From Candidatus Bathyarchaeota archaeon (GTDB lineage: Archaea > Thermoproteota > Bathyarchaeia > Bathyarchaeales > Bathycorpusculaceae), in contig CAWHVC010000004.1 in the NCBI GenBank assembly GCA_963832745.1, positions 32,001 through 96,000 on the forward strand: DNA of 64,000 nucleotides, read 5' to 3'. Shown in pieces: positions 13,501 to 46,399 of the stretch. The notes under the pieces were generated by a model. That model was given only the letters and a program-made list of their open reading frames with translations, made no database searches and was not told where the DNA came from. Position 1 is the first letter of the stretch. Each line of letters begins with the position of its first letter. Both the position numbers and the translations under genes were made by a program.

Positions 13501-14125
13501 GGTCGTCAAGGCGTTTTTGAACTTCATCAATTCTGCCCATGGCAGTGCGAATGCTGATGTCGGCGCTGCGCAGTTTTTCTTCTGCTTCAGCCTTTTCTGA
13601 GTCATATTGTCCTATACCGATAAGTTCTTCAATGATTTTTCGGCGGTCTAACGGGTTAATTTCTGTTAACCTGGTAATTTGGCCCTGTGGAATGATGTTT
13701 TGGCTCATGCTGCTGATTGCAGCCATGGAGAGGGTTTCAATAATGTGTGAACGGCTCATTCTTCTACCGTTGAGACGGTAAACGCTTTGGCCATTGCGGT
13801 AAACTTCTCGGGAAATGGTGACTGTTGAGGTGTCTACAGGCATTAAGCCGTCTGCGTTGTCAAATTGAACAACTACTTTGGCCATTTTGGATTTTTCTAA
13901 GCCGCCTTTTTCTGAACCATGAAAAATTAGTCGTGAAGCGTTGTCAGCTCTCATTCTTCTTGTAGATAATTCTCCAAGCGAGAATAGGAGGGCATCCATA
14001 ATGTTGGTTTTGCCGCTGCCGTTTGGGCCTGTGATTGCTGTGAAACCTTTGTCTAGGTTTACTTTTACTGTTTGTGGCCCGAAAGACTTGAAGCCTTTTA
14101 ATTCGATTCTTTTAATGTACGGCAA
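10556..14125 (-). CDS. smc: Chromosome segregation protein SMC
   Basis: GFKSF, Walker A GPNGSGKTN, long coiled coils, hinge, SGGE and LDEADAHLD. Confidence 0.96.
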   Translation of the reverse strand: MPYIKRIELKGFKSFGPQTVKVNLDKGFTAITGPNGSGKTNIMDALLFSLGELSTRRMRADNASRLIFHGSEKGGLEKSKMAKVVVQFDNADGLMPVDTSTVTISREVYRNGQSVYRLNGRRMSRSHIIETLSMAAISSMSQNIIPQGQITRLTEINPLDRRKIIEELIGIGQYDSEKAEAEEKLRSADISIRTAMGRIDEVQKRLDDLERERNQLLRYNFIQEETKKFQAIKISNEIAQLTAKLQESAVNTEKVQARVDKLKEQRELRRGKRHDIEGEWRKLSGETLEEGGSQVLKVQINIGELKSRLTELTTQISSGQASLESLKRVSQNNQVHHDSIQNEIKDNRLKIRAYKSEYEKVKAQIEEKEAIHEALAKETAQLWEGLGDNNHKARGIEMQIESHTKRLAYLRSEYTKDKSAMRTCAGRLKNLTVRKEKFVINLAELEKSLSELEQVQRDQKAQIKNLENTIERKTSQKELVQKEITDAERIARSAKDAVIEFATQKDLAATIAQEEKALRSIEEMGDVGAISGIQGRLRSLIKIDKNYKKAVEAAATGWLDALVVKDVEAAFMCAETLRRMKLGRIKIIPLQGAISRKTKPAPIREGVVGQLSGFIKYDKKFDFAVDYVFGDTIVVSNDKTGFALSNNGYRSVTVSGDLYESGAFESGFYRAPIDFSTIIPSENALKSLDEAVKALQTHLTQRGSDITGIDEEIEHAKIEMSRLNEFIITLDREVVRIRRSVKRTQLNVRHTEKYGGRLEREIAAYKGRMSMYMSERNAIKKSLQKNHIELSEFRQKTDVSHIQDLEVQRERVGEETNTLRQNLGTLQTEISTRQSQFDNVLRVGYQNVKIQLSKVDQQHKKLEKEIAEALQQRDNLKKELDDLEKSRVELSNAVFSAREESKKFTSQIDAIDTELRLLDAEYEQADMLLNQLTLTIQTSNLRLQTLQNQLKQYGFEHVLEISQKQVQDADTTIRMMQFELERIGAVNQLALSHYADQISRYRELSVRLNELEREKQAIVAFMDEIDAKKRKVFMNAFEKINTSLQGYFDKLSGGGTATLKLENPDDPFTGGIDMIVQFPNKPAIVVSGASGGERSCSAVAFIFSLKEFSPASFYILDEADAHLDAFHTTKLAELLLEEAGRTQFIVISLRPEMVNKAQKVYGVYERNGISNVVTAKFPPETPTKGELSR

Positions 14126-21976: not shown

Positions 21977-22071
21977 CCTTTTTTCACTTGACGCTTGCTT
22001 TTTAATTATGTAGGTAATTGGATGGAGAAGCATATAAGCAGATTGAACCAGTTTATTTTGCTGAGGCACAG

Positions 22072-23214
22072 ATGTATCCAAGCCATGACGATTTAGGCAT
22101 ACTTGAACCCATTATTGGACCATGGTATACTTCATTAAAAAACCCATTAGACGCCCAAAAGGAGGTCCTTAAGGAGTTGCTTGAAAAGTATTCTCAAACT
22201 GAATACGGCAAGAAATTCGGCGCCCAAAACATCAAAAACATAGAAGATTACGAAACAAAAATGCCTATAATTAATTACGCCAAAATGCAACCGTATCTTG
22301 CCCAAATCCAAAACGGCAATTATCAAGCGTTTCTTTCCGAACCTGCTGAAACATGGGTCATGACTCGCGGCTCCACTGGAAAACAGTCTAAAGTTTTGCC
22401 TGCCACGCAGACGCATCTTAAACAGATTTTCACCTGTGGTGCCCGTGGGTTAATCAATTTTGCGCTTCGCAAACAAAACTTTGACGTCTTCACCGGCGTA
22501 ATTTTGAACTTAAATTTTCCGTCAAGTGTACACACGATTGACCAGAATGGTCAAAAAATGACTTATGGTTACAGTTCGGGAACTTATGCGCGGCTTAACC
22601 CGATGTTTGACCGTGTTAGCCTGTTACCCAAACAGGAGGAAATTGATAAGCTTGGTTCAGGTATCAGCCGTGCTGATTGGGAACAACGTTTCGACCTTGT
22701 TTACGAACAAGCAAAGAATGAAAATGTTACCGCGACAATGGGAGTTACGCCAGTGATTTTAGGGTTTGCCCGTTACATCAAGCATAAGTATGGCAAAAAA
22801 CCTGTTGACCTCTGGAAACCAAAAGCCCTCTTCTGCACAAGTGTTCGGAAAATCCAGTTTAAGTATGGTCCAGTTTTGCAGAAGTACTTTGGTGAGGCAC
22901 CTATTGTGGAGATGTATTCGGCGACGGAAGGCGTTTTTGGTCAACAGTTGGATGATTTGCCGTATATTTCGATGAATTATGACTCTTACTTTTTTGAGGT
23001 TGCAACAGGTAAAGGTGTAAAGTTGCTTTGTGACCTTAAACGTGGTGAATGGGGCAGGCTTATTATTTCTTCATGTATGTTTCCACGTTATGACATAGGA
23101 GATATGGTGGAGTCTGCAGGTGGAAACTATTTTAGAATTTTTGGCAGAGCTAATGCTTCAACAATTCTTGAGCACAGGTTGTACCGCACGTTTTTAGGTA
23201 GAATTATTGGTTAA
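22072..23214 (+). CDS. GH3 (auxin-responsive promoter)-family acyl-adenylate ligase
   Basis: TEYGKKF, P(II)NY, TRGSTGKQSK P-loop, YSATEG and RYDIGD motifs. Start set at ATG 22072 (ORF track gives 22018). Confidence 0.8.
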   Translation: MYPSHDDLGILEPIIGPWYTSLKNPLDAQKEVLKELLEKYSQTEYGKKFGAQNIKNIEDYETKMPIINYAKMQPYLAQIQNGNYQAFLSEPAETWVMTRGSTGKQSKVLPATQTHLKQIFTCGARGLINFALRKQNFDVFTGVILNLNFPSSVHTIDQNGQKMTYGYSSGTYARLNPMFDRVSLLPKQEEIDKLGSGISRADWEQRFDLVYEQAKNENVTATMGVTPVILGFARYIKHKYGKKPVDLWKPKALFCTSVRKIQFKYGPVLQKYFGEAPIVEMYSATEGVFGQQLDDLPYISMNYDSYFFEVATGKGVKLLCDLKRGEWGRLIISSCMFPRYDIGDMVESAGGNYFRIFGRANASTILEHRLYRTFLGRIIG

Positions 23215-24895: not shown

Positions 24896-25510
24896 TTGGT
24901 CGCTGAACTATTTACAAAAGGTATATCTTGTTTTGTTGTTGATTATTTCTGGAGTGATGGCTTTTTGGAAAAGCAGGGCACCAAGTTGAAGGGTTACAAG
25001 CATGCTGAAAGCTTGTTTAGTGCATTATATATTGGCACGATATTCATCTCTCTTGGCGTCATCTACTTTATTCATCTTCCAAAAAGTCTTTTTCTTGAGT
25101 TAATTGACTTTTTTGACCACCTAACCCTTGCCCGTGTACCTGATACAGGCATATTTTTACCTGCACCAATCTCTCCTGCTGCATACGTTGATTTGTATAC
25201 TGCCGTGTTTCAGTTCTTCTTAGTTATTGCCGTAATAGAAGTGGTTATTTTAGTGCTTAGATTCGTGTTCGATTCGCCAGTTAAACGCAAGGCAGAAACA
25301 ATCTCTAACGTGGTCTTCTGGTTTGGCACAAGCTACCTAATCTGGACTTACCTGATGAATGCAGCAACAATTAACAAGTGGTTTGTCTTCTGGATAGGCA
25401 TCATAATAATCTTTGGCTTATCCCTAATAGCCCGCGCTTTCGCGTTGCTGGCAAAACGCAACCCTAACCCCCAAGACAAATCAGAAAGTCAAGTGCTTCC
25501 ACAAAACTAG
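24896..25510 (+). CDS. 4-TM membrane protein
   Basis: Four hydrophobic helices; true start probably ~24965. Confidence 0.7.
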   Translation: MVAELFTKGISCFVVDYFWSDGFLEKQGTKLKGYKHAESLFSALYIGTIFISLGVIYFIHLPKSLFLELIDFFDHLTLARVPDTGIFLPAPISPAAYVDLYTAVFQFFLVIAVIEVVILVLRFVFDSPVKRKAETISNVVFWFGTSYLIWTYLMNAATINKWFVFWIGIIIIFGLSLIARAFALLAKRNPNPQDKSESQVLPQN

Positions 25511-26227
25511 AACTTGCCAACCCATGTCAAATGAGTCTTTAAAGAGTTTAACTTTTGTTTCTCGGGTGCTGTTCCATTCAACAGGGATTTCTTTGACCTT
25601 GTAACCTTTGCGTTCCGCGCGGACAATGGTTTCAGTGTCCCAGAACCAATGGTTAGCTTCAACCTCATCAAGTAGCGGCAACAATTTTTCCCGTTGGAAC
25701 GCTTTAAAACCGCATTGATGATCCTTTACTTTAGAGCCGAGAACTATTCTGACCATGAAATTGTAGGTTTTAGACGCGAAGCCACGCGTGAAGGTTCGTT
25801 TTACTTTGCTTTCTGAAAGCATTCTTGAACCAGTGGCTAACTGGTAGCCTTCAACTGTAACGGCGTCGATTAGTTGACTTAAATGTTTAAGGTCAGTCGC
25901 TAGGTCTACATCCATATAGATTAAAACGTTGCCTTTGGATTGTTTAAAAGAATTTTTTAACGCTCTACCTCGTCCAAGACGTTTTTCGCCATGCAAGTGA
26001 CGAACATAGGGCAGTTCTTGTACTAGTTCATCGGCTTTTTTGTCAGTGCCATCTGTGCTGCCGTCTTCAGCAATTATAATTTCGTAGGTACAGCCGTAAG
26101 TTTTGAGCGCTTGACTAATTTTTTTTACTGTCTGCTCAATTATGTCTGCTTCGTTTAAAGCTGGAAGCACAACTGTAACGTCGAGTTGCCCGGTTTTGAT
26201 TGCGTCTTGCGTTTTTAGAACACCCAT
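25481..26227 (-). CDS. GT2 polyprenyl-phosphate hexose synthase (DPM1-like)
   Basis: VVLPALNE, EDGSTDGT, MDVDLA, DHQCGFKAF, WFWDTE, EIPVEW. Confidence 0.9.
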   Translation of the reverse strand: MGVLKTQDAIKTGQLDVTVVLPALNEADIIEQTVKKISQALKTYGCTYEIIIAEDGSTDGTDKKADELVQELPYVRHLHGEKRLGRGRALKNSFKQSKGNVLIYMDVDLATDLKHLSQLIDAVTVEGYQLATGSRMLSESKVKRTFTRGFASKTYNFMVRIVLGSKVKDHQCGFKAFQREKLLPLLDEVEANHWFWDTETIVRAERKGYKVKEIPVEWNSTRETKVKLFKDSFDMGWQVLVLWKHLTF

Positions 26228-27969
26228 TGGTTAAACCATCTTAAACTTTCAGCTGTGGCGGTTGATACGGTGGCTCCTGAGATTACGGGGTAGAATAGCA
26301 CGAATAGTGCGACTACCGCTATAAAGTAGGTTGCCGCTGCAATCTTCATCCACTTGTACTTCCAATACTTGCTAATAAAATACGCTGAAGCTAGGCAGAT
26401 AATTGGCACGTTAACATAATAATGATAAATGAATAATCCGCGGCTCACAAACGCGTAAGGCAACCATTGAGCAAAGAAAACCACTGCAAGAAACGCCGCC
26501 GGCACTTCAAATTTGGGCATTTGCCGTTTTTTAAGTTCAGAAACTGCTTTGAAAATAACTAATCCTGTGATGGCAATGATTGCCGCAAAGCCCACCCACC
26601 AAACAGCTGGGTTTCCAAACAGGCTAATTGTGGAACGCATGTCACCTGGTAGAGAGCTGATGTATAGCCAGAGAGGTTTTCCGATTATTGGCCAACTCCA
26701 GCCTGGTGAAGAGTACGGATGATCAAGACCTATTGGCGCAGAGTGATAAGCAAACATGCTGTCTTGAAGCCCAACCACATTAAGGAAAGATCTACCCGCT
26801 ATCATGTCGGGAATGTAGGCCGCAAAATAAATGCCTATTGACATAATGATAAAGGCTACCAGGTAAGCGTACGGGTGATCAAATAACTCGTAAACTTTGG
26901 CGGAAAGCTTACTTTTGCTTTTTACCACTTCAGAGAGTCGTATAGCCGCCAATATGGCTAATTCACCCAAGAAACCGAAAAGAACCAGCCACTTAGTGGA
27001 GAAACCCAAAGCAAAGAACAAAAACGAAAGGAACAATGGCACAACGCTGGTGTTTTTCCAGCCCTTCTTAACTACGCCGCTTAGATAGATAAAGAAGAAC
27101 AGTTGCGAGGCTAACGAGAAAAACACGACAAACGTGTCGGTAATGCCTAGTCGTGCCTCTGTGAAATGCATGAAGTCAAATGTGAATAGGAACGCTGCTG
27201 AGAAGCCGCCGATGTAGGAGCCGAACATTTTCTTTCCTAACAGGAAGATTAGCGGAATCATCAGCATGGCAAAAATAACGTCCATAATTCGCCAGCCGAA
27301 CGGGGTTAACCCAAACGCTGCAATGCCGGTTGCGAGGATAAGTTTCCCTAAGGGTGGATGGGTCCATTCGTATGGGAACTGTGAATGCAGGTACTGTTGG
27401 GCTGTTCTTGTGAAGTATACTTCATCGAACATTGTTTCAGTCATGTAAGTGTTAGGTAACTCAACTATGCTTTGTTCATCAATCAACTTGTTGAAATCAA
27501 GGCTGGTACCATTTTCACCAGTGATTGAGGTAATTGGGATTTTCTGGCTGTTTTGGTCAAGGACTGCTATCTCGTTAACTTCAATGTTTGCTCCTTGCTC
27601 AAATTCCAAACGGATGTATCTTGTCGTGTTGTAAATGCTGGTGCTGTTCCAATTCATATACGCAAACGGGTAACCAGCAACGATTTTGCCGATTTCACTC
27701 CAGTCGCCAGGTTGGCCAGTGTAGACTTTGATAGTGCTCGTGGTTTGGCAGTCTTTCATGTAGAAATAAAGTTTGTTAACGTAGATTGGGTTTCCAAGGT
27801 CAATTACTGCAGCCTGTGGTTCAGTATTTTCTACTGTTAGGCTGTTGGATGGCACTTGTGTTGCACCCAAGTTAGTTACAGCTATGGAGAAGAAGATTAG
27901 TGACAGCAAAACCATTGTTAAAATGTCTTTTTTGTCAATATGCAAGTCAAAGTCAAAGTTGAGTTTCAT
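26215..27969 (-). CDS. GT39 protein O-mannosyltransferase (PMT-like) with an N-terminal extracellular beta domain
   Basis: FDEVYF (DE motif), EWTHPPLGK, FGWR, HPYSS..W.WP, GNPAVWW, FIYHYY. Confidence 0.88.
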   Translation of the reverse strand: MKLNFDFDLHIDKKDILTMVLLSLIFFSIAVTNLGATQVPSNSLTVENTEPQAAVIDLGNPIYVNKLYFYMKDCQTTSTIKVYTGQPGDWSEIGKIVAGYPFAYMNWNSTSIYNTTRYIRLEFEQGANIEVNEIAVLDQNSQKIPITSITGENGTSLDFNKLIDEQSIVELPNTYMTETMFDEVYFTRTAQQYLHSQFPYEWTHPPLGKLILATGIAAFGLTPFGWRIMDVIFAMLMIPLIFLLGKKMFGSYIGGFSAAFLFTFDFMHFTEARLGITDTFVVFFSLASQLFFFIYLSGVVKKGWKNTSVVPLFLSFLFFALGFSTKWLVLFGFLGELAILAAIRLSEVVKSKSKLSAKVYELFDHPYAYLVAFIIMSIGIYFAAYIPDMIAGRSFLNVVGLQDSMFAYHSAPIGLDHPYSSPGWSWPIIGKPLWLYISSLPGDMRSTISLFGNPAVWWVGFAAIIAITGLVIFKAVSELKKRQMPKFEVPAAFLAVVFFAQWLPYAFVSRGLFIYHYYVNVPIICLASAYFISKYWKYKWMKIAAATYFIAVVALFVLFYPVISGATVSTATAESLRWFNQWVF

Positions 27970-29224
27970 TTGGTGTTTGCTCCTTTTTCTGCTCGTTGAT
28001 TGCTAAGGGTTCAGTTTTAAGCGCTGCTTTGCCTTTTAATTCATCCCACAATAGCAATGAACCATATAAAAACGTAATCACGTTAATGACGCCGACAACC
28101 AAAACCACGGGGTCACCAGAAAGATTGGGGCCATAACTGTAGCCCGCGTTGGCGTAAAGGTTCAGCCAGTATAAGACGTAAGCAACGTTTGTTAGGAAAG
28201 TTACAGTGATAACGCCGTAAAGCAGCCTGACTTTTCTGACAAACGGAAACATCAAAGCCAAAATGCTGATGGCTGGAAACAGGTAGCGTTCATGAATCCG
28301 TGTTGGAAGCATGAAAAAAGCGAAGAACAACATAAACGCTGCAAAGAAGACTATCATCTGATCTGATTTGCCCCAACGCTTGTTTAGAACATACAAGGTG
28401 AAAAGTGAGAAGACCGCAAATAGTGCCCAACCTAAAATGAACAGGTTGCCATCAGGAATCCATAGGCCAAATATGCCCCAGAGGTTGAATGCGTTGATGG
28501 ATGTGTAGGCGTATCCACTGTACGCGCCAAAATAGATGTCAGAAAGGAAAGTTATTGGGTTGCTCCATTGCATGGGCAAAATAACCACAAAAATAGTTGC
28601 CGTAAAAGCAGCCACTGAAAAAAGCAGACGTTTAACGCCGTTTTTCTTGAAAATCAAAAACGCTACCAACGGCAACAAAGCTATCGCCTGCGGTTTAGTT
28701 AAAACGCCAACAGCAAAACTTACCGCCGAAAGTTCAGGCTTACTTTTTAATGCAAGAATTAGCGATAGTAGAAGGAACAGGGTATAGATGGCGTCGAATT
28801 GCCCCCAAACTGCAGCGTTAAAGATTACTGCTGGGTTAAAAACATAAAGTGCAGCGGCGACAAGGCCAAGTTTGAAGCTTAACTGTTTTCGAACAAACCC
28901 GTAAATCAAGCCAGCAATTAATAGGTCGAAAATGTTTGGGACCAACTTTACAATGTAAGTTACAAAGGGTGTTCCGAAAAGACCTAAAGATTGGGCTAAT
29001 GAACCAAAACCCCAAAACAGGTAAATGTTAAACGGTGGATAATCGCACCAGCTTACAGCGTTGTAGAAAAGTCTTGGACCGTAATCAGCGGCAGTGTTAA
29101 ACCATGAAACGAAGGTGCCCATGTCGTTTTGGTAGCCTTGAAGTGGAAACAGCAGAACCCTAATTACGAAGGATACCCCTAGCATGCCAGCTAAGACTGC
29201 TATTTCACGCTTATCAAACTGCAA
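27953..29224 (-). CDS. GT-C fold membrane glycosyltransferase (lipid-phosphate-sugar dependent)
   Basis: D...F..W, CDYPP, WGQFDA, KPQ, SINAFNLW, PTRIHERYLFP. Confidence 0.85.
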   Translation of the reverse strand: MQFDKREIAVLAGMLGVSFVIRVLLFPLQGYQNDMGTFVSWFNTAADYGPRLFYNAVSWCDYPPFNIYLFWGFGSLAQSLGLFGTPFVTYIVKLVPNIFDLLIAGLIYGFVRKQLSFKLGLVAAALYVFNPAVIFNAAVWGQFDAIYTLFLLLSLILALKSKPELSAVSFAVGVLTKPQAIALLPLVAFLIFKKNGVKRLLFSVAAFTATIFVVILPMQWSNPITFLSDIYFGAYSGYAYTSINAFNLWGIFGLWIPDGNLFILGWALFAVFSLFTLYVLNKRWGKSDQMIVFFAAFMLFFAFFMLPTRIHERYLFPAISILALMFPFVRKVRLLYGVITVTFLTNVAYVLYWLNLYANAGYSYGPNLSGDPVVLVVGVINVITFLYGSLLLWDELKGKAALKTEPLAINEQKKEQTPNETQL

Positions 29225-29648: not shown

Positions 29649-30002
29649 GTGAAGATAATTCAAATTGTTGGAGCCATCGCGGTTGCGTTTTTGTTCTTTT
29701 TGGCAGTTATCTTTGCGCTTGCTTCAACCGTTCAAGCTACGACTTCAAGATTGGCAGTTAGCGGCATACTATTTGTTACCGGAATTGCAGTGATAGTTGG
29801 CATCTACTATACAACAAGAAAACCCAAAACAGTAATCCAGCAACTGGAACTTTCAGGAAAAATGAAAGCAGCCACAATCAAATGCCCAAACTGCGGCGCG
29901 GCAGTTGACGCAAACAAAATCAAAATTGTCCAAGGCGTACCCTACGCTACTTGTCCCTACTGTGGCACAACTTTTGAGGTTACAGAGGAACCAAAATGGT
30001 AA
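29649..30002 (+). CDS. 2-TM protein with C-terminal Zn ribbon
   Basis: Two TMs, then CPNC..CPYC and EEPKW; overlaps the next gene by 7 nt. Confidence 0.85.
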   Translation: MKIIQIVGAIAVAFLFFLAVIFALASTVQATTSRLAVSGILFVTGIAVIVGIYYTTRKPKTVIQQLELSGKMKAATIKCPNCGAAVDANKIKIVQGVPYATCPYCGTTFEVTEEPKW

Positions 30003-31618
30003 AACGTGCTTTCCTGCTGGCGGTTACTGTAGCGCTTTTAGCCACGGCCACATTATGTTCAGGTCTGGCAAATGCTCAAAATTTAGCCTACAATGTTAAT
30101 CAGGAGTGGGCTCAACTTTTCATTAACCCAGATGGCACAGTGGACTTGACTTATAATATGTCATTAACCGTAACAGCGGGTACCATGCATGCTTTTGATT
30201 TGGGAATGCCTAACAGGGATTTTACCATTGGCCGCGCAGTTGACCAGTATGGAAACAATCTTAACACTTACAGTTACACGCCTGATGTGGCTTCGGTGGA
30301 TTTTAAGCAGCCTCTTAACGCTGGAGACAGCATCTGGTACACCATAACCACCAACGTCGCCGGCATGTTAAGCAACGACACGACCAACCCTGGCAATTAT
30401 GGCATGGAGTTTGCGCCTCAATGGATAGAAAATGTGCCCATCCACAACGTCCGCGTACAGATTGTTATGCCTGACGGCGTTACCGTGCAAGACGTGAAAA
30501 CTTTGCCTGACAAGTTCTGGAATAGCAGCTCAACTGTTGAAGGCAAAACAGCGCTTTACTGGGAAATCCCTGTGCTTCAAGCAAATCAGCAGTACCCAAT
30601 CGGCGTTTCTTTCCCGTCAGAGTTTCTGCCAAACTATGTTCCTACTCAACCTGGCGGAATTAACTTAGAAACCCTGCTGGATTATCTTGTTATACCCATC
30701 TTTGTAATAGTAATCATAATCGTCATTATTGTGGCCTCCAGAAGCAAAAGTAAGTACACTTCCCCAAAAGTCAGCATGGAAACATTAGGCTTAAAACGGG
30801 GCTTAACAGCTGTAGAAGCATCAAGCCTGCTTGAGTTTAAACCAACCCAAATAGTAACCGAAATCCTCTATAGCCTCCTGCAGAAACGGGCAGTCTGGGC
30901 TGAATCAACCAAACCCTCGTTGAAACTCAAGGTGCTCTCGCCGTACGAGAACAAGACTGGAACACCAGAAAATCCGTTACGCTACTACGAAATAGACTTT
31001 CTGCACTCCCTGCGGGAAGATGGCACGCTTGATGAAGAAAAACTTGCCCATACCGTCACTTACCTCCGAGACACTGTTGAGGAGAAAATGCGGGGCTACA
31101 ACCGGAAAGACACCGTGGATTATTACCGTAAAATCGTAGCCACAGCTTGGACGCAAGTGGAGCAGGCGGGAACACCTGAGCTTGCCTCAAACGCTTACAA
31201 TGAACAACTGCTCTGGCTTATGATGGACCCCAATCAGAAAACCCGCACAGAAACCGTCTTCCAAAACCGTGTTTTCCAACCTGACCCCTTATGGTTCTGG
31301 TGGTGGTACGGCTACACAATCTATCATCCACACCCAGTTTATCGTCCAAACATTAACGTTCCAGCACAGTCAGGACCTGCACCTGCCATTCCGGGCGCTG
31401 AATTTGCAAACAACATAGCAACCACTTTAGAGAACACTTCAAACAGTATAGTGCAGAACTTAGAAAAGTTTGCGAACTCTATTGTTCCGCCGCCACCAAA
31501 AGCTTCTCATGAACCAGCCCGTCATGGTTCTGACTGCGTTTGTGCATGTCATGCTTGTGCGTGTGCTTGCGCTTGTGTCTCATGCGCTTGCGCCTGCGCA
31601 GGTGGAGGAGGCAGATAA
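29996..31618 (+). CDS. Membrane protein (DUF2207-like architecture) with a C-terminal 10-Cys (CA)n tail
   Basis: Signal peptide, extracellular beta domain (INPDGTVDLTY..VQIVMP..GVSFP), one TM, a cytoplasmic domain, and the tail CVCACHACACACACVSCACACAGGGGR. Confidence 0.85.
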   Translation: MVKRAFLLAVTVALLATATLCSGLANAQNLAYNVNQEWAQLFINPDGTVDLTYNMSLTVTAGTMHAFDLGMPNRDFTIGRAVDQYGNNLNTYSYTPDVASVDFKQPLNAGDSIWYTITTNVAGMLSNDTTNPGNYGMEFAPQWIENVPIHNVRVQIVMPDGVTVQDVKTLPDKFWNSSSTVEGKTALYWEIPVLQANQQYPIGVSFPSEFLPNYVPTQPGGINLETLLDYLVIPIFVIVIIIVIIVASRSKSKYTSPKVSMETLGLKRGLTAVEASSLLEFKPTQIVTEILYSLLQKRAVWAESTKPSLKLKVLSPYENKTGTPENPLRYYEIDFLHSLREDGTLDEEKLAHTVTYLRDTVEEKMRGYNRKDTVDYYRKIVATAWTQVEQAGTPELASNAYNEQLLWLMMDPNQKTRTETVFQNRVFQPDPLWFWWWYGYTIYHPHPVYRPNINVPAQSGPAPAIPGAEFANNIATTLENTSNSIVQNLEKFANSIVPPPPKASHEPARHGSDCVCACHACACACACVSCACACAGGGGR

Positions 31619-31620
31619 AA

Positions 31621-32946
31621 ATGAGTCTGTTTAGAAAACCAAAGATTCCCTTTGGCCGGTTTGCTTACCGCGGAACTGACAAGTATTCAGGTATGTCCTT
31701 GCAGCTACGAGTTGAACGTGACGGACGAGGAGTTATGGTAATTAACGCCAACACCGTGCTGCACTTAAACCAAACCGCCACAGCATTTGCTTACTACTTT
31801 ATGCAGGGTTTACCTGAATTGGAAGTTTTAAGTAAAATCCAAAAAACCTACAAGGTTAATCAGGAAACCGCCAAAGTTGATTATGAGAAAATCATCAATA
31901 CCATCAGCACCTTGGCGAAAACAGAAAAGATTGACCCAATAACGTTCTTGGAGATTGAACGTGAAGAACCATTTTCTTACCAGTACTCGGCGCCACTGCG
32001 GATGGATGCTGCTTTGACTTTCCGTTGCCAAAATGACTGCATCCACTGTTATGCAGGGGGACCACACGAAACGCCTGAACTTTCCACCGCACAATGGAAA
32101 CAGATCATTGACAAACTTAGCGAAATCGGAGTTTTCATTATAACCTTCACAGGCGGCGAACCCACCTTACGCGATGACCTACCAGAACTGCTACTTTACG
32201 CTCAAAAGAAAGGCATAGTCACTGGTTTGATTTCTAATGGCCGTAAACTCAAAGATGCCGCATACGTTAAGGTGCTTGAAGATTCAGGATTAGACTTTGT
32301 CCAGGTAACATTGGAGTCGGATAAGCCTGAAATTCATGACGCAATGACTAAGGCGGTTGGCAGTTGGGCTGAAACTGTTGAAGGCATTAAAAACGCGGCT
32401 AAATCATTAATCTACGTTTCAACCAACAGCACGCTTAGCAAACAAAACGTGGACGGGTTCATGTCTACTGTTGATTTTATCAAGAGTTTAGGTGTGGACG
32501 CGTTTGGCTGCAACAGCCTAATTTATTCTGGTAAAGGGGATAAAGTAAGTGAAGAGTTTGCCCTGTCCGCTGACGAGTTAAAAGATTTATTGCCGAAGAT
32601 TCATGACCGAGCGCATGAGGTTGGCTTAAAATTTCTATGGTATACACCTACCCAGTACTGCATTTTTAATCCTGTCCAAGTAGGGTTAGGAATTAAGTCG
32701 TGCACTGCAGCCATGATTAACGCCTGTGTGGGACCCAACGGCGACGTTTACCCCTGCCAAAGCTACTTTGAAAGCCTCGGCAACATCCTAACTGAGCCTT
32801 GGGAAAAAATTTGGAACAGCCCCCTCGCCCAGAGCCTTCGCAAACGTGAATACGTGGAACCTAAATGCAAAGACTGCCCAACCTTGCAAGAATGCGGTGG
32901 AGGCTGTCCCTTGGAGCTGCAGAGTAAGCAACATATTTGTAGCTAA
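31621..32946 (+). CDS. Radical SAM/SPASM enzyme with PqqD/RRE-like N-terminal domain
   Basis: CQNDCIHC, GGEP, SPASM C..(GDVYPC)..CKDC..CGGGCP, and LHLNQTATAF..EVLSKIQKTYKV..AKVDYEKII (PqqD-like). ATG is 2 nt after the upstream stop. Confidence 0.92.
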   Translation: MSLFRKPKIPFGRFAYRGTDKYSGMSLQLRVERDGRGVMVINANTVLHLNQTATAFAYYFMQGLPELEVLSKIQKTYKVNQETAKVDYEKIINTISTLAKTEKIDPITFLEIEREEPFSYQYSAPLRMDAALTFRCQNDCIHCYAGGPHETPELSTAQWKQIIDKLSEIGVFIITFTGGEPTLRDDLPELLLYAQKKGIVTGLISNGRKLKDAAYVKVLEDSGLDFVQVTLESDKPEIHDAMTKAVGSWAETVEGIKNAAKSLIYVSTNSTLSKQNVDGFMSTVDFIKSLGVDAFGCNSLIYSGKGDKVSEEFALSADELKDLLPKIHDRAHEVGLKFLWYTPTQYCIFNPVQVGLGIKSCTAAMINACVGPNGDVYPCQSYFESLGNILTEPWEKIWNSPLAQSLRKREYVEPKCKDCPTLQECGGGCPLELQSKQHICS

Positions 32947-33024: not shown

Positions 33025-34263
33025 ATGGATATTCAAGAGAAAACGCGGCTCATTATTTTCGACGTTGAAGGAGTCTTAATTCCCAAAAACATGTTCTTCT
33101 ACAAGATGGGCAGAACACTTGGCTTCTTCACTTTAATGCAGATTCTGATATACGGGTTTCTATATGAAATCGGCGTGTCATCTCTTGAAACATCACTTAA
33201 ACGTATTTTCAACAAACTAAAAGGGCAGAAAATGCAAACACTGCTGTGCGTTTTTGACCAAATCCCAGCTACTCCAAGACTGCAAAGTTTTTTTGCGCAA
33301 GTAAAAGAAAGAAATTACCGTGTTGCTCTGATTAGTTCAGGTTTGCCCACGGTAATTGTTGAAAGTTTAGCAAAATGTTTAGGAGCAGACTATGCGTACG
33401 GTATTGATGTTTGTGTGAATGCTGCTGGCGAAGTTACTGGTGAAATCAGCGGGGAAGCCATAGAAGTTAACGGTAAAATGAAGATTTTACAGCATATATT
33501 AACGGTTGAAGGCTTAACTTTAAACGATTGCACGGTGGTGGCTGATGACCGAAACAATCGTTGTCTCTATACACGTGAAACCAAAAAAATCGGTTACAAC
33601 CCAGACTTTATCATCCGAGTAAAATCAGACTATGTTGTAATGGGGAAACTTGCAAGCATCCTGCCAATTTTAGACGCGAAAAAGGTTAAGCGGGCTTTCC
33701 CATCAACAAACGATTTCGTCAGGGAAGACATTCACGCTGCAGGCTTCTTTATGCCTGTAATAGCCCAAATAGTCGGCGTCCTGCCAGTAGCCATTTTCAT
33801 CAGTGCAGTATCAATTGTTTACCTTATATCTGAAATTATTCGGCTAGACGGCAAAAGATTACCATTCATCTCAGACGTAACATGTCATGCAGCTTCACAA
33901 TCAGAGTTTTACGGATTTGCCGCTGCTCCACTTTTCTACGCTTTGGGAATCCTGTTAACATTGTTGATTTTTCCTTTTCCAGCAAGTGCCGCTGCAATCG
34001 CCATTTTTGCTTTAGGGGACAGTACAGCTTCAATCTTCGGGGGCTTGCTGGGCATACGTTTGCCGTTCAATAAGGGTAAAACTTTGGAGGGTTCGCTTTC
34101 GGGTTTTGTCTTCGCGTTTTTGGCGGGCAGCTTGTTTGTTGCACCCTGGATTGCAGCTGTTGGAGCAGCAATTGCCATGTTTGTTGAGTATCTGCCGTTG
34201 CCAATAAATGATAACGTTGTAATTCCAATTGTTACAGCAGTGGCTTTAACACTGCTAATATAG
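33025..34263 (+). CDS. HAD (phosphoserine-phosphatase-like) domain fused to a dolichol/phytol-kinase-like domain
   Basis: N-terminal IFDVEGVL, LISSG, K, DD; C-terminal REDIH, LGDSTASIFG, KGKTLEGS, INDN. Confidence 0.8.
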   Translation: MDIQEKTRLIIFDVEGVLIPKNMFFYKMGRTLGFFTLMQILIYGFLYEIGVSSLETSLKRIFNKLKGQKMQTLLCVFDQIPATPRLQSFFAQVKERNYRVALISSGLPTVIVESLAKCLGADYAYGIDVCVNAAGEVTGEISGEAIEVNGKMKILQHILTVEGLTLNDCTVVADDRNNRCLYTRETKKIGYNPDFIIRVKSDYVVMGKLASILPILDAKKVKRAFPSTNDFVREDIHAAGFFMPVIAQIVGVLPVAIFISAVSIVYLISEIIRLDGKRLPFISDVTCHAASQSEFYGFAAAPLFYALGILLTLLIFPFPASAAAIAIFALGDSTASIFGGLLGIRLPFNKGKTLEGSLSGFVFAFLAGSLFVAPWIAAVGAAIAMFVEYLPLPINDNVVIPIVTAVALTLLI

Positions 34264-41586: not shown

Positions 41587-41829
41587 ATGAAGTTTGCTGA
41601 ACTTGCAATTTTGCTAAGAGAAATCGTTGACAGTTGCCCAGGTCTAGATGGTAGCACTATTTCTTTGATACCGCAAAAAGCAATGTACCACCTGTACACT
41701 GGATACCATATCGTGATTAAAGATTCAATTAGTCAAGATAGCATGGGCTGTTTAAGAAAAATTGTTGAAGGACATGATTTAATGATGAAAATCAAAATAG
41801 ACTCCATTGTTATCTATGAACCAAGGTAA
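41587..41829 (+). CDS. Small hypothetical protein
   Basis: ATG with GGGG SD-like sequence; 80 aa; globular composition. Confidence 0.6.
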   Translation: MKFAELAILLREIVDSCPGLDGSTISLIPQKAMYHLYTGYHIVIKDSISQDSMGCLRKIVEGHDLMMKIKIDSIVIYEPR

Positions 41830-41860
41830 TCAGGTTAAACGTTTAAGGGGTAATTATGCT

Positions 41861-42739
41861 GTGAATGAAACTGGCAAGCTGGAAAATTTAACTAAAGTAA
41901 AAATCACAAATTTAGAAAAAATGCTTTACCCCCAAATCGGCGTTAAGAAAGCCCAAGTAATCGAATACTACATTTGGTTAGCCCCTAAAATTTTGCCCTT
42001 AATCGCAAATCGCCCACTGGTTCTAACAAGGTACCCCAACGGCATCCAAGGCTCAGTAAGTTTCTTTGAAAAAAACGCTCCCGAAGGCAAACCTGACTGG
42101 GTAAAAACAGTTCCCCTTTATTCAGAAACCAGCAAACGCGAAGTTGACTACATCATATGCAATGATCTTGATACGCTAATTTGGCTGGCAAACCTTGCTG
42201 CACTTGAAATTCACATGCCTTTCGCCAAAGTCGCCAATCGAGAGCAACCTGACTTTTTGTTTTTTGATGTTGACCCTGAACCGCCAGCAACGCTTGGTGA
42301 TGGTGCTGAAGTGGCGCTTTTGCTTAAAGACAAGCTTTGCAGCATGGGGCTTGAACCGTTCATTAAAACTTCAGGCAAGAAGGGTTTGCATGTAATTGTT
42401 CCAATTGTTGAGGGCTGCACGTTTGAGCAGACGCGCTCCTTTGTGCATAAAATCGGTGTTGAATTAGCTAAAGAGACTCCTCTTGTAGTTTCCGAGTTTA
42501 AGGATACCAAGAAGCCCGGTAAAGTGTTTGTTGATTACTTGCAGAATTCTCAAGGTCGAACAATGGTGATTCCCTACAGTTTGCGTCCTACCCTGCAGGC
42601 GACGGTTTCTACGCCGCTCGAATGGGCTGAGGTCAAACGGGGACTTAACGCAGAAGAATACACCATCAAGACAGTTCCAGAACGTAAATATGACCCTTGG
42701 AAAGAAATTTTTAAGAGAAAAGCCAAACTGCCCGTCTGA
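41861..42739 (+). CDS. NHEJ primase-polymerase (stand-alone LigD Pol domain)
   Basis: TNLEKMLYP, RYPNGI, FFEKN, FDVDP, KTSGKKGLH, VDYLQN, PYSLR, VSTPLEW. Start GTG 41861 (ORF track gives 41807). Confidence 0.92.
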   Translation: MNETGKLENLTKVKITNLEKMLYPQIGVKKAQVIEYYIWLAPKILPLIANRPLVLTRYPNGIQGSVSFFEKNAPEGKPDWVKTVPLYSETSKREVDYIICNDLDTLIWLANLAALEIHMPFAKVANREQPDFLFFDVDPEPPATLGDGAEVALLLKDKLCSMGLEPFIKTSGKKGLHVIVPIVEGCTFEQTRSFVHKIGVELAKETPLVVSEFKDTKKPGKVFVDYLQNSQGRTMVIPYSLRPTLQATVSTPLEWAEVKRGLNAEEYTIKTVPERKYDPWKEIFKRKAKLPV

Positions 42740-42813
42740 GAGTTTGGGGCAAAATTTTTTAATAATCGTAAACTTCGCTATTAATCAGTATCAGACTTTC
42801 TGGATGTGTTAAT

Positions 42814-44007
42814 TTGCAGTATCGTGTAGTTCCAAAAAATGGTGATAAACTATCTGTGCTCGGCTTTGGTTGCATGCGTTTACCCTTAAATGGGCAAGCC
42901 ATTGATGAGTCGCGTGCTATAAAACAAATCCGTCTTGCAATCGATAACGGCGTAAATTATGTTGACTCCGCGCCGCCCTATCACGGTGGAGAAAGCGAAA
43001 AAGTCCTTGGTAAAGCCCTGCTCGATGGTTACCGCGAAAAAGTAAAAGTAGCAACCAAACTCACCCCTTTCATGCTTAACAAGGCTGAAGATATGCAGAA
43101 AATGCTTGATTTGCAACTGCAAAAACTTCAAACCAACCACATCGACTACTATTTGGCTCACGGGTTAGATGAGGATTCTTGGCGTAAAATGCAGGATTTT
43201 GGTGTGCTAAAATTTTTAGAGAAAGCAAAAGCTGACGGCAAAATCGTTAACATTTGCTTTTCTTTCCATGGAACGCTTGAAACTTTCAAGGAAATCGTTG
43301 ATTCTCACGATTGGGTGATGTGTCAAATTCAATACAACTTTTTAGATGAGCATTTTCAGGCTGGCACGGAGGGTTTAAAGTATGCTGCTAAAAGGAATCT
43401 TGCGGTTGTGGTTATGGAGCCACTGCGTGGCGGGTCATTAACCTGCAAGGTTCCACCAGAAGTGAAGCAGCTTTATGACGCTTCAAACGTTGGCTGGTCT
43501 CCGGCTGAATGGGCGCTTCGTTGGGTTTGGAATCATCCTGAAGTTACGTTGGCGCTTAGCGGCATGAATGATGAAGCCCAAGTAGTGGAAAACATCAAAA
43601 TCGCAGAGGCAGCGTTGCCAGGCAGCATGACACCTGACCAGTTGGCTTTAATCAAAAACGTTCAAGTAACCTATAGGCATCTTAGGCAGATTCCCTGCAC
43701 TGGGTGTGAATACTGTATGCCCTGCCCTCAAGGAGTAGATATCCCTCGCAGCTTCAGCGTTTACAATGATTACTGCATGTTCGGTGACGAACAACAAGCT
43801 CGTGCCTCCTACGCGTTTGCTTTATTGGGTGCTTTTGGAGGTGAACGGTCTGATGCCACACTTTGCAAGGACTGTAAACAATGCGTGGAACGTTGCCCAC
43901 AGCACATTAATGTTCCGGGGGAGCTCAAGAAAGTTTCTGACACCATTGGCGGTCAAAAAACAGAAGCAATCGCTGCTGCCATAAAAAGTCAACACAAAAA
44001 ACCTTAA
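42814..44007 (+). CDS. Aldo/keto reductase with C-terminal 4Fe-4S dicluster
   Basis: LGFGCMRLP, IDYYLAH, QIQYN, MEPLRGG, CTGCEYCMPCP, CKDCKQCVERCPQ. Confidence 0.9.
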   Translation: MQYRVVPKNGDKLSVLGFGCMRLPLNGQAIDESRAIKQIRLAIDNGVNYVDSAPPYHGGESEKVLGKALLDGYREKVKVATKLTPFMLNKAEDMQKMLDLQLQKLQTNHIDYYLAHGLDEDSWRKMQDFGVLKFLEKAKADGKIVNICFSFHGTLETFKEIVDSHDWVMCQIQYNFLDEHFQAGTEGLKYAAKRNLAVVVMEPLRGGSLTCKVPPEVKQLYDASNVGWSPAEWALRWVWNHPEVTLALSGMNDEAQVVENIKIAEAALPGSMTPDQLALIKNVQVTYRHLRQIPCTGCEYCMPCPQGVDIPRSFSVYNDYCMFGDEQQARASYAFALLGAFGGERSDATLCKDCKQCVERCPQHINVPGELKKVSDTIGGQKTEAIAAAIKSQHKKP

Positions 44008-44055
44008 CCATTTTTATTTTTTCCTTTTTTTGTTTTAGAAAGCGTTAAAACCATC

Positions 44056-44958
44056 GTGAACAAATACTTTAATGGTCAAGCCTTTAAGCTTGAGGTTGCA
44101 GTTTTTGAGGTGACATTTTTGGGTTTAGAAGAACAAACTCGTGAAGATGCTGGGTCTGAGGAAAAGCAGGTTAGCGCTAGTGTTCCAAGGCGTTCAATTT
44201 GGTCGGGAAGTATAACAATTGGGCTTGTTAATGTTCCTGTAAAGTTGTATTCGATGATTTATGATAAGGGTGTTAGTTTCCATTTTCTGCATAAGACTGA
44301 TGGGCAACCTTTGAAATACGTGAAAATGTGCACCAAGGAAGAAAAAATTGTGCCTTGGAATGAGGTTGCTCGGGGCTATGAAGTCTCAAAAAACGAGTAT
44401 ATTCTCTTTGACAAGAAAGAGCTTGATGCTGTAAAACCTGAATCAGACAGGCGCATACGCATCAGCAAATTTGTTGACTACTTTAGTGTGGACCCAATCT
44501 ATTTTGACCGCACGTACGCTTTGATGCCTGACAAAAGCAAGGATGCCTACAACCTGCTGCTGACGGCGCTTGAGAAGAAAAACAAAGCTGGGGCAGGACG
44601 CATTACTTTGCGAACCAAAGAGTACCCAGCGTTACTGCATACTTACAAGGGCGCTCTTGTTTTAACCACTTTGCGCTATGCCTACGATGTAGTTAACCCT
44701 CAGGATTTCGAGGAAATCCACAAACTCAAAGAACCTGAAAAAGCTGAACTTGATTTAGCAGTAAAAATTGTAACAGACCTTAGCGGTGAGTTTGATATAA
44801 CGGAGTTTGAGGACACTTACCAAAAGAAGGTTGAAGCTCTTGTTGCCCAAAAAATGAAGGGTGAAAAAATAACTGTTGAAAAGCCTCCTGAAGAAGAAGC
44901 TAAAGGTCTCATGGTTGCATTGCGGGAAACTCTTAAGCAGTTGGAAAAGCAGAAATGA
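44056..44958 (+). CDS. ku: Ku protein (NHEJ)
   Basis: RSIWSGSITIGLVNVPVKLY, RGYEV, DPIYFDRTY, FEDTY, LMVALRET. True start probably ~44110-44120. Confidence 0.93.
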   Translation: MNKYFNGQAFKLEVAVFEVTFLGLEEQTREDAGSEEKQVSASVPRRSIWSGSITIGLVNVPVKLYSMIYDKGVSFHFLHKTDGQPLKYVKMCTKEEKIVPWNEVARGYEVSKNEYILFDKKELDAVKPESDRRIRISKFVDYFSVDPIYFDRTYALMPDKSKDAYNLLLTALEKKNKAGAGRITLRTKEYPALLHTYKGALVLTTLRYAYDVVNPQDFEEIHKLKEPEKAELDLAVKIVTDLSGEFDITEFEDTYQKKVEALVAQKMKGEKITVEKPPEEEAKGLMVALRETLKQLEKQK

Positions 44959-46399
44959 GCCGTCATCGCCACCTGTATAAGCCGATGCTTGCCAAAGTTG
45001 CAGAGAAACCGTTTTCTGGTAAAGACTGGGTTTTTGAAATCAAATGGGACGGATTTCGCGCAATCGCTTATGTTGAGGAACCGTTTAGTGTTAAAAGCCG
45101 TAACCAGAAAGAGCTTAAACAAAACTTTCCCGAACTTGAACAGCTAAAGCATTTGGCGCGTGGTCTTGTGGTTGATGGAGAAATTGTTGTGATGAAAAAT
45201 GGTAAGCCAGATTTTCAATCGTTGCTTGAGCGTGGGCAAGCTGTTTCGTCGCGTGAGATTGACCGGCAAATGGGTCGGGTGCCGGCGGTTTACATTGTTT
45301 TTGACGTGTTGGAGAAGGATGGCGAAAGTTTGACTGGGTTGCCGTTGGTGGAGAGGAAACGGGTTCTTAAAGAGTCGCTTACTGAAGGCTCTAATGTGCT
45401 GTTGTCTGATTTTATCGAAGAGAACGGTGAAGCTTATTATCAGCTTGCGTTGGAACAAGGTTTAGAAGGAGTCGTCGCTAAACGTAAAGACAGCCTTTAC
45501 GAGGAGGGTTTGCGGACTGGTAGTTGGCTGAAAATTAAGCAGTTAAAAACTTGTGACTGCATTATTTTCGGTTACACCGAGGGCGGTGGGGTGCGGGGAA
45601 AAACTTTTGGTGCTCTGCTGCTTGGAGTTTATGATAAAGAGGGAAAACCAGTTTATCTTGGTAAGGTTGGAACAGGTTTTAGTGAGCAAACACTTGGAAC
45701 GTTAATGGATAAGTTTGAAAAAGTTAAGACTGATGCTGAACCGTTTAAGTCTGACGTGGGCGATGTTGTAACGTGGCTAGAGCCCAAACTGGTTTGTGAA
45801 GTAGGCTATCAAGTTTTGACGCATGATTTTAAGCTGCGTATGGCACGTTTCCATAACCTGCGTGAAGATAAAGCGCCGGAAGACTGCACAATTGACCAAT
45901 TCATGGAAGCCAACCCCAAACAGGTGCCAGCAAAGGCTACTGGCGAAAAGCTGTCTGAGTACAAGTCAAAACGCGACTTCCTTCAAACCAGCGAACCCCC
46001 ATGCGGAAGTAGAAAGAAACTGGTGGTGCACCCATTTTTGTTGTTCAGGAGCATCATGCAAGTCATCTTCATTGGGATTTTAGGTTGGAAAGCGGTGGTG
46101 TTTTGAAAAGTTGGGCTGTTCCTAAAGGTGTTCCAGAGGACACGAAACAGCGGCATCTTGCTGTGGAAACTGAGGACCATCCGTTGGAGTATGCAAATTT
46201 TGCGGGCACTATTCCCGCGGGTCAGTATGGGGCTGGGACAGTTATTATTTGGGATAAGGGGCATTACTCAGTTAAGGAGTGGGAGCAGGACAAAATTGAA
46301 GTGGTTCTTGATGGTCAACGCCTAAAGGGACGCTATGTACTGGTGCGGCTTAAGCGTGGGGATGCTAAAAACTGGTTGATGCTTAAAGGAAAAGAGTAG
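44955..46399 (+). CDS. ligD: NHEJ ATP-dependent ligase fused to a 3'-phosphoesterase (frameshift near 46000-46020)
   Basis: EIKWDGFR, DGEIV, FDVL, EGVVAK, WLKIK, then LSEYKSKRDF..EP. The other frame gives FVVQEHHASHLHWDFRLE..LKSWAVPKG..EDHPLEY..YGAG. Confidence 0.88.

Follow-up and report, generated by a model that had tools for sequence, protein, structure and literature searches.

What does a radical S-adenosylmethionine (SAM) enzyme with a peptide-binding domain act on when its gene directly follows that of a large membrane protein ending in alternating Cys and Ala residues? The question is raised by a three-gene cassette in a 64,000-nucleotide stretch of DNA from a Candidatus Bathyarchaeota archaeon (contig CAWHVC010000004.1, positions 32,001 to 96,000 of the forward strand; hereafter called the window, to whose positions all coordinates refer). 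The cassette lies on the plus strand, is present as a single copy in the source genome, and has close relatives in Bathyarchaeia. Gene 1 (29649..30002) encodes a 117-aa protein with two hydrophobic segments near the N terminus and a zinc ribbon (CxxC...CxxC) at the C terminus, gene 2 (29996..31618) a 540-aa type I membrane protein that is the presumed substrate, and gene 3 (31621..32946) a 441-aa enzyme in which a recognition element of ribosomally synthesized and posttranslationally modified peptides (RiPP recognition element [RRE]) is joined to radical SAM and SPASM domains. As described in an initial annotation made from the sequence of the locus, the genes are tightly coupled, with a 7-nt overlap of genes 1 and 2 and a 2-nt gap between genes 2 and 3, and gene 2 ends in a tail with 10 Cys in 21 residues on the predicted cytoplasmic side; coordinates and hydropathy agree with both points. 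We report that this is a real, conserved, and uncharacterized system and uphold the tail as the likeliest substrate. Some covalent change of the tail by gene 3 is clearly probable in our judgment, and thioether cross-linking of a tail that stays on the membrane protein is narrowly probable.

Linkage of the tail and the enzyme

The linkage of tail and enzyme holds both ways. Starting from the proteins, the two were found on the same strand within 2.6 kb at 67 of 67 GTDB loci. Starting from the tail, a degenerate 26-base pattern retrieved at least 125 stretches from metagenomes, 80 of which had flanks and represented 76 distinct contigs. Among the matches listed, 4 of these contigs were chance frames without an enzyme and 72 were genuine; a member of the enzyme clade lay within 4.1 kb on 57 of the 72 (in L153, a pseudo-enzyme was the only clade member in view), and the remaining 15 ended on the side where the enzyme is expected. 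The same 12 genomes held both genes, adjacent, in a sample of 251 genomes of the phylum, with one additional weak match per gene (G240 and G128), neither of which was a member. In a sample of 301 genomes of the class, which overlaps that of the phylum, 58 had the enzyme, and the tail was directly upstream in 57 of these, the 58th enzyme lying on a contig of 1,571 bases; in further tail-positive genomes, the enzyme was directly downstream in 31 of 31. The membrane-protein profile matched 61 genomes of the class, four more than the 57 with a linked enzyme. One of the four has an adjacent, frameshifted enzyme (G013), two have a gene cut by the contig end, with the enzyme absent elsewhere at an E value of ≤1e-90 (G352 and G355), and one has an ordinary DUF2207-like protein cut by the contig end (G254). 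Neither gene was found in 239 of the 301 genomes, a pattern of joint patchy loss, and within the genus, too, the cassette had a scattered presence (5 of 14 others). The co-occurrence suggested by the single locus is thus a strict two-way linkage.

Three ARRANGEMENTS of the system, types A, B, and C, were distinguished, and in all of them the Cys core is carried on a membrane protein of 320 to 780 aa. Type A, that of the source locus, has the order zinc ribbon, tail protein, enzyme, to which some bacteria add a paralog lacking the cluster Cys residues and a methyltransferase. In type B, the enzyme gene precedes that of a 320- to 430-aa tail protein with the same ectodomain and transmembrane segment (HHalign, 99.9%) and without the cytoplasmic domain or helix 466 to 496 of gene 2; its tail is internal and runs on as GGGRAGCSxK plus about 25 residues. 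In type C, the enzyme is followed by a pseudo-enzyme, one or two tail proteins, and a methyltransferase. Gene 1 was found at 66 of 67 GTDB loci and at 26 of 80 metagenome loci (among the matches listed), and in three type B proteins (L108, L119, and L160) a zinc ribbon stands between the transmembrane segment and the tail, which ties the function of gene 1 to the system.

That the neighborhood reflects descent alone, with tail and enzyme functionally unrelated, would fit the fact that most of the counted genomes come from one archaeal class. The linkage nevertheless survives reversed gene order and change of phylum, being kept in Bacillota, in a Desulfobacterota-type metagenome-assembled genome, and in Chloroflexota-rich clusters (the Atlas clusters are mostly Chloroflexota), and loss is joint and patchy; we consider the probability of this explanation negligible. 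Among the named hosts of homologues are Ca. Zymogenus saltonus, Gemmiger formicilis, and Oscillospiraceae. In a FastTree phylogeny of 76 proteins, all tail-linked enzymes, including the pseudo-enzymes, formed one clade with a long stem (support, 0.85); this monophyly refers to a sample in which the outgroup consisted of 14 other SPASM proteins from the source genome and L003, the characterized maturases being outside the tree. A tblastn search of plasmids with a type A homologue gave no match. Six matches to the tail pattern were found in viral contigs, none of them with the enzyme; five look like chance frames, and contig L222 has a real-looking tail 264 bases from the contig end.

Conservation of the Cys-Ala tail

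The tail (31535..31618; residues 514 to 540, followed by the stop codon) is preceded by a Pro/Ser-rich linker modeled with low confidence, has its 10 Cys residues between C514 and C534, and ends in (Cys-Ala)n-GGGGR. It is the best-conserved part of gene 2, with a top-residue frequency of 0.86 at residues 521 to 540 versus 0.42 to 0.47 in the folded domains, in an alignment (A3) whose rows were chosen as full-length tail-bearing proteins, a choice that favors high tail conservation. Among 150 representatives of gene 2, collected with a profile that included the tail, 112 had at least 480 aa; 103 of these terminated in the tail, 3 had a variant or internal tail, and 6 were tail-less (four match the ectodomain alone and two end short). 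The number of Cys residues per tail was 5 to 10 in 132 locus proteins, with one 3-Cys tail (P0265). The position profile of these tails is circular where the search pattern had fixed the residue, and such positions were left unused. A533, A535, and G537 are invariant, and the minimal tail unit is C-A-C-A-C-A-x-G-G, further upstream Cys-Ala units being optional. Of the 301 genomes of the class, 39 had the DNA pattern for CACACA(G/S/H)G, each a single time, whereas none had the control pattern, its reverse. An origin of the tail by DNA repeats or slippage is ruled out because all 18 tail-core codons vary synonymously among 57 loci. The tail is not due to chance.

The position of the tail within the protein bears on what could happen to it. 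Its internal location in type B and in four proteins from archaea (P0145, P0167, L077, and L079) rules out a reaction at GGGR of the ubiquitin-like or C-terminal-carboxylate kind. These four proteins, from one non-Bathyarchaeia family of the phylum, have a conserved in-frame 90-aa extension past the tail, and the enzyme is still encoded directly downstream. The same internal tails speak against a cleaved RiPP core, that is, a peptide freed by a general protease from a membrane protein that serves as an oversized leader. A flexible linker ahead of the tail would suit such a release, and RODEO-type mining has indeed chosen these C-terminal ends as precursors. The protein body, however, is folded and conserved, and no protease or exporter/transporter is conserved across the loci, so that we regard cleavage as very improbable. 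Consistent with the initial annotation, which saw no stand-alone precursor in the operon, none was found among the conserved neighbors, clustered as open reading frames (ORFs) of at least 100 aa.

An RRE-bearing radical SAM/SPASM enzyme

Gene 3 starts with ATG at 31621 and stops at 32946. The TTG start at 31540 given by the ORF lister (468 aa) falls inside the tail and is refuted by the starts at related loci, which in 51 intact Bathyarchaeia loci lie at −4 to +37 nt relative to the gene 2 stop (−4 to +3 in 44 of the 51). A scan for promoters and terminators gave counts no higher than shuffle level.

The N-terminal domain of gene 3 (31693..31920; about residues 25 to 100), previously noted as a PqqD-like segment, is an RRE. 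Pfam matches exceeded the cut-off for Radical_SAM (PF04055) and SPASM (PF13186), as did TIGR04085 (53.6 versus a cut-off of 27); the PqqD match of gene 3 itself was weak (E = 0.058), and one homologue exceeded the PqqD cut-off. A 57-row profile of the family matched the solved RRE TfuB1 (E = 2e-5) and ranked SkfB first (E = 4e-34) and PqqE second. In the structure model (mean pLDDT score [predicted local distance difference test], 92.8), strands 26 to 31, 37 to 41, and 45 to 49 and helices 51 to 61, 66 to 77, and 81 to 100, all at a pLDDT of >90, form the three-strand/three-helix RRE layout, with one additional N-terminal strand beside it. Foldseek placed SkfB, SuiB, and CteB on top, and VIA gave Z scores of 29.9 for SkfB (root mean square deviation [rmsd], 3.4; 343 residues aligned from residue 25), 26.7 for SuiB, 25.4 for anSME, and 18.9 for EpeE.

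The CxxxCxxC motif (32026..32052; C136, C140, and C143, then Y144) is present in all 51 active-type rows of alignment A2, in which C361, C379, and Q380-S381 are likewise invariant. The SPASM region (32659..32940) contains C347, C361, C379, C416, C419, C425, C429, and C440, plus C369. The full SPASM Cys set claimed earlier is therefore present in gene 3 itself but is not a property of the family: all 41 of the type A enzymes examined have C347, the last SPASM Cys is found in 22 of these 41, and the motif of the second auxiliary cluster (AuxII) is missing in 8 of 8 Firmicutes-type enzymes, which have a Twitch-like look.

No family model covers gene 2 or gene 3. The best 25 of 78 NCBIfam families all scored below their cut-offs, the named radical SAM equivalogs NirJ2, AhbD, MftC, PqqE, StsB, AlbA, and SkfB among them, with scores versus cut-offs of 142.6 versus 500 (NirJ2), 90.8 versus 625 (StsB), 85.2 versus 850 (AlbA), and 79.8 versus 300 (SkfB); TIGR04463 was outside these best 25 and also outside the best 25 of 40 for the SPASM part. 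Six catalytic-proximity positions have been defined by Precord et al. (PMC10288494) and were located here by their adjacency to sequence motifs rather than from the figures of that paper. By this mapping, gene 3 has Y-T-I-T-Q-S, compared with Y-T-I-S-K-L in StsB, Y-T-F-S-Q-L in SkfB, F-F-T-S-H-Q in CteB, and S-S-I-S-H-A in PqqE, that is, identities at 3/6 positions with StsB, 3/6 with SkfB, 1/6 with PqqE, and 0/6 with CteB. The residues thus lean toward those of sactisynthases, and we take this as a lean rather than a test because the mapping is by adjacency and there is overlap with the non-peptide enzyme BlsE. A complex prediction of the enzyme with residues 262 to 540 of gene 2 scored 0.00 in two runs and is uninformative either way.

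The membrane protein that carries the tail

Gene 2 begins with a signal-peptide-like segment (29996..30076; residues 1 to 27, by hydropathy), probably cleaved after Ala-x-Ala, followed by an extracellular beta-sandwich (30077..30634; residues 28 to 213) that is common to type B, a single transmembrane helix (30656..30757; about residues 221 to 254, by hydropathy), and a cytoplasmic helical domain (30785..31483; about residues 264 to 496) that is missing in type B. Basic residues come right after the transmembrane helix, and the tail is predicted to be cytoplasmic because of this order of a signal-like start and one transmembrane helix followed by basic residues. The structure model, built from 128 alignment rows, is confident at residues 28 to 213 and 264 to 496 and of low confidence at 501 to 534. 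The ectodomain folds like a luminal domain of ribophorin I/Ost1 and the N-terminal domains of M1 aminopeptidases (VIA Z of 14.8, rmsd of 2.9, and 180 residues aligned with 6s7o_E, with Foldseek as further evidence; Z of about 12 with M1-peptidase N-domains); what it has in common with ribophorin I is the fold of one luminal domain, the sequence match being at E = 0.88. The cytoplasmic domain is weakly GOLPH3/DUF2207_C-like (Z of 7.0, rmsd of 4.2, and 160 residues aligned with GOLPH3 for residues 269 to 480, a weak match for which the whole-protein model was used).

By sequence, gene 2 appears to be a distant relative of DUF2207 (PF09972/PF20990). It scores 14.9 versus a gathering score of 24.4, and 0 of 88 representatives exceeded the Pfam cut-off, with sub-threshold matches to the N-domain (n = 3) and the C-domain (n = 4). 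Like DUF2207 proteins, it combines a signal peptide, a beta-sandwich ectodomain, a transmembrane segment, a helical cytoplasmic domain, and a low-complexity C terminus, but in addition to scoring below the cut-offs it bears the invariant Cys-Ala tail and has a dedicated enzyme. In S. mutans, a mutant in a DUF2207 protein is sensitive to acid and peroxide stress (PMC10457818). Gene 2 may be a single-pass sensor or scaffold, possibly with a role in envelope sensing.

The helix at residues 466 to 496 had been proposed as an internal leader. It is a confidently modeled, folded part of gene 2 that is missing in type B, and it is not a general leader, since C-A-C-A-C-A-x-G-G is the sole cytoplasmic element common to all types; it may help in type A.

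Pseudo-enzymes and neighboring genes

Pseudo-enzymes that keep the RRE and the barrel and have lost CxxxCxxC occur in type A (L085, L122, L127, L136, L147, and L157) and type C (L110, L137, and L153) and nest within the active enzyme clade. Those of type A are also without any SPASM Cys, and those of type C partly retain AuxII. In one Bathyarchaeia genome, a second, stand-alone enzyme copy, in which the cluster motif is degenerate and SPASM Cys residues are missing, lies away from the cassette (L250:1635-2921; G319:C69) and looks like a separate pseudo-enzyme origin.

On 11 distinct contigs (L085, L087, L096, L099, L102, L103, L132, L136, L137, L142, and L157), the cassette is followed by a gene for a class I SAM-dependent methyltransferase, which runs in the same direction on 10 of them and is absent from the source locus. 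In L085, L117, L129, and L136, an IS200-transposase-like ORF of about 180 aa lies between the tail gene and the enzyme gene. Directly after the cassette, gene 4 (33025..34263, plus strand) encodes a HAD-phosphatase domain fused to a membrane domain; it was rejected as a core part, being present at 58 Bathyarchaeia loci but at 1 metagenome locus. Likewise rejected were three divergent glycosyltransferase genes (GT2, PMT-type, and GT87-like; 25481..29224, minus strand) that neighbor the ribophorin-I-like gene of the cassette (about 10 Bathyarchaeia loci and 0 metagenome loci).

Proposed modification of the tail

Gene 3 would be a maturase devoted to the Cys-Ala tail. Gene 2 would be inserted as a single-pass protein whose tail extends into the cytoplasm at the end of a disordered Gly/Ser/Pro linker, and gene 3 would bind the tail region via its RRE, probably at the tail itself, as this is the sole cytoplasmic element common to all substrate types. 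A 5'-deoxyadenosyl radical would take a hydrogen from the C-alpha of a tail Ala or Gly, and this C-alpha would be joined to the sulfur of a tail Cys, repeatedly, to give sactionine-type thioethers at −2 Da each. The product would remain attached to the membrane protein, since no protease or exporter is conserved. Rings might run from Cys to position i+3, using A533, A535, and G537, or join adjacent residues, as do the six-membered rings of enteropeptins (PMC12395415), or form a hairpin, as in StsA with its CxCxC donors and Gly acceptors (PMC10288494).

Several points weigh against thioether formation on the tail. The support for tail modification consists of sequence and models, and linked genes of related genomes are nonindependent observations. 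The top NCBIfam scores of gene 3, although far under the cut-offs, belong to the heme-pathway enzymes NirJ2 and AhbD. At the catalytic-proximity positions, BlsE has T and I too (two of four visible positions), and position 3 varies within the enzyme family. The invariant C347 could occupy the fourth site of the first auxiliary cluster (AuxI), judging from the motif, a site believed to stay open in CrpC and other enzymes that form thioethers (PMC13692751). Finally, 10 Cys residues alternating with Ala cannot all sit in StsA-like hairpins.

The tail might instead be modified in another way, by epimerization (yielding a D,L-alternating segment), by conversion of Cys to thioaldehyde/formylglycine or dehydroalanine, or by carbon-sulfur links between Cys residues. 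The linkage and the RRE speak equally for such a change; strict Cys-Ala alternation with a variable repeat number is in keeping with it, as are the presence of EpeE and anSME among the structural neighbors and an AuxI possibly fully ligated through C347, as in anSME/SuiB-type enzymes. Nonetheless, SkfB outranks both anSME and EpeE in the structural comparison, the tail has no sulfatase-type CxPxR context, and the proximity residues suit sactisynthases better; we rate these chemistries as unlikely.

The tail might also stay covalently unchanged and serve as a metal or Fe-S thiolate array, a sulfur donor, or a docking site by which the enzyme is tethered or supplied at the membrane, the enzyme acting on some other molecule (lipid, cofactor, or small molecule). 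An alternating Cys-rich tail with a zinc-ribbon partner would fit this picture, as would the lipid-enzyme-like HAD/membrane gene downstream in many Bathyarchaeia and the cluster-less pseudo-enzymes, whose retention of the RRE suggests that binding is selected apart from catalysis. Yet types A, B, and C have no conserved gene of a small-molecule pathway in common, the invariance of Ala and Gly besides Cys seems to go beyond the usual need of metal binding, and to our knowledge the RRE-bearing SPASM enzymes characterized to date all act on a bound peptide. An unmodified tail therefore appears rather unlikely, and thioether cross-linking by gene 3 remains the reading that we favor.

Comparison with known systems

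Keyword and exact-tail-motif searches of the literature, with subscription journals mostly outside their coverage, returned no paper on this system. The earlier statement that no characterized example was known thus stands for the exact family, but there are partial precedents, namely, CrpC in an archaeon (PMC13692751), a proposal for other membrane proteins (PMC12452194), and sequence fragments in a supplement (PMC10288494). The spreadsheet supplement of the last (2023) has three rows of "Other Uncharacterized" precursors, in group 40 of its sequence similarity network, beside RRE-bearing radical SAM enzymes. At the end of all three stands CACACACAGCACACAGGGR, the tail of bacterial type A; they are 82- to 176-aa fragments that were not recognized there as ends of membrane proteins.

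In Methanococcus voltae, the RRE-radical SAM-SPASM enzyme CrpC (TIGR04463) makes ranthionine links in CrpA, a 28.8-kDa Cys-rich protein, at the motifs CAGM, CAVD, and PCAGD (PMC13692751, 2026). As in the present cassette, the enzyme gene adjoins that of a Cys-rich protein, and the C-terminal Cys residues of CrpA are thioether linked, the RRE not being strictly required for CrpC. CrpA, however, has an N-terminal leader and ten 17-residue repeats, its links are of the ranthionine type, and the word "membrane" is absent from PMC13692751; gene 2, at about 2% Cys, is below the 5% filter of that study, and its tail is without repeated CxxQ/D motifs or an Asp/Gln acceptor pattern. QhpD, also RRE bearing, puts thioethers into a lasting protein subunit, QhpC (summarized in PMC13692751); QhpC differs in being small and soluble, with an N-terminal leader and Cys-Asp/Glu acceptors that are missing from the tail.

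With SkfB, StsB/BlaB, and AlbA, gene 3 shares the combination of RRE, radical SAM, and SPASM/Twitch domains, SkfB being the top structural match, and its proximity residues lean toward theirs. In contrast, these sactisynthases act on short peptides made of leader and core, which undergo cleavage and export, and the features of a sactipeptide system, a short stand-alone leader-bearing precursor and a protease or exporter in the cluster, were not found here among the conserved neighbors (ORFs of at least 100 aa). TIGR04222 membrane proteins with Cys-rich tails have been proposed, a proposal only, as substrates of MNIO (DUF692) enzymes (PMC12452194). They resemble gene 2 in being membrane proteins with a Gly/Ser low-complexity linker, C-terminal Cys residues, and a RiPP-type enzyme as neighbor, but the enzyme class is another, their tails are variable and predicted to be periplasmic, and a third of the genomes are without an MNIO. 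TIGR04222 did not match gene 2 (one homologue matched weakly, at 19.2 versus 43, E = 7e-4), and no MNIO was found among the conserved neighbors scanned.

The system would work like the sactipeptide and Crp-type maturase systems but belongs to none of them; what sets it apart is the fusion of a near-invariant core to a protein integral to the membrane. The CrpC/CrpA, QhpD, and TIGR04222/MNIO precedents lower its novelty.

Other genes of the window

Elsewhere in the window, an archaeal nonhomologous end-joining cluster encodes a LigD primase-polymerase, an aldo-keto reductase, Ku, and an ATP-dependent ligase (41807..46106, plus strand). Genes for SMC, an unnamed 243-aa protein, and ScpB lie in a row at 9095..14125 (minus strand), and a protein with a GH3-family (acyl acid-amido synthetase-like) N-terminal domain is encoded at 22018..23214 (plus strand).

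Implications

Large proteins with verified RiPP-type thioether chemistry are few, as stated in PMC13692751, which adds one. If the proposed cross-linking is correct, it would be, within the literature searched, the first such chemistry on an integral membrane protein. The near-invariant tail core of 10 to 20 residues is portable, occurring terminally or internally on differing scaffolds, and so lends itself to direct testing as a tag; precursor-mining tools overlook cores that are attached to large proteins in this manner. The recurrent, catalytically dead paralogs that retain the RRE offer a model for pseudo-enzyme function in the radical SAM superfamily, and the system, which occurs in both archaea and bacteria, the cultured gut commensal Gemmiger formicilis among the latter, offers a way into the function of DUF2207-like proteins. 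A more far-reaching scenario, which we consider quite unlikely as a whole, is that the tail becomes a ladder of thioether rings (adjacent thiomorpholinones as in enteropeptins, or i+3 links), a rigid polycyclic segment lastingly anchored on the inner face of a single-pass receptor whose ectodomain is ribophorin-I-like. An Fe-S/SAM-dependent writer would set its modification state, which the cluster-less pseudo-enzyme, the zinc-ribbon partner, and a methyltransferase would read or tune and which would then constitute a new transmembrane signaling or envelope-stress switch in archaea and gut Bacillota.

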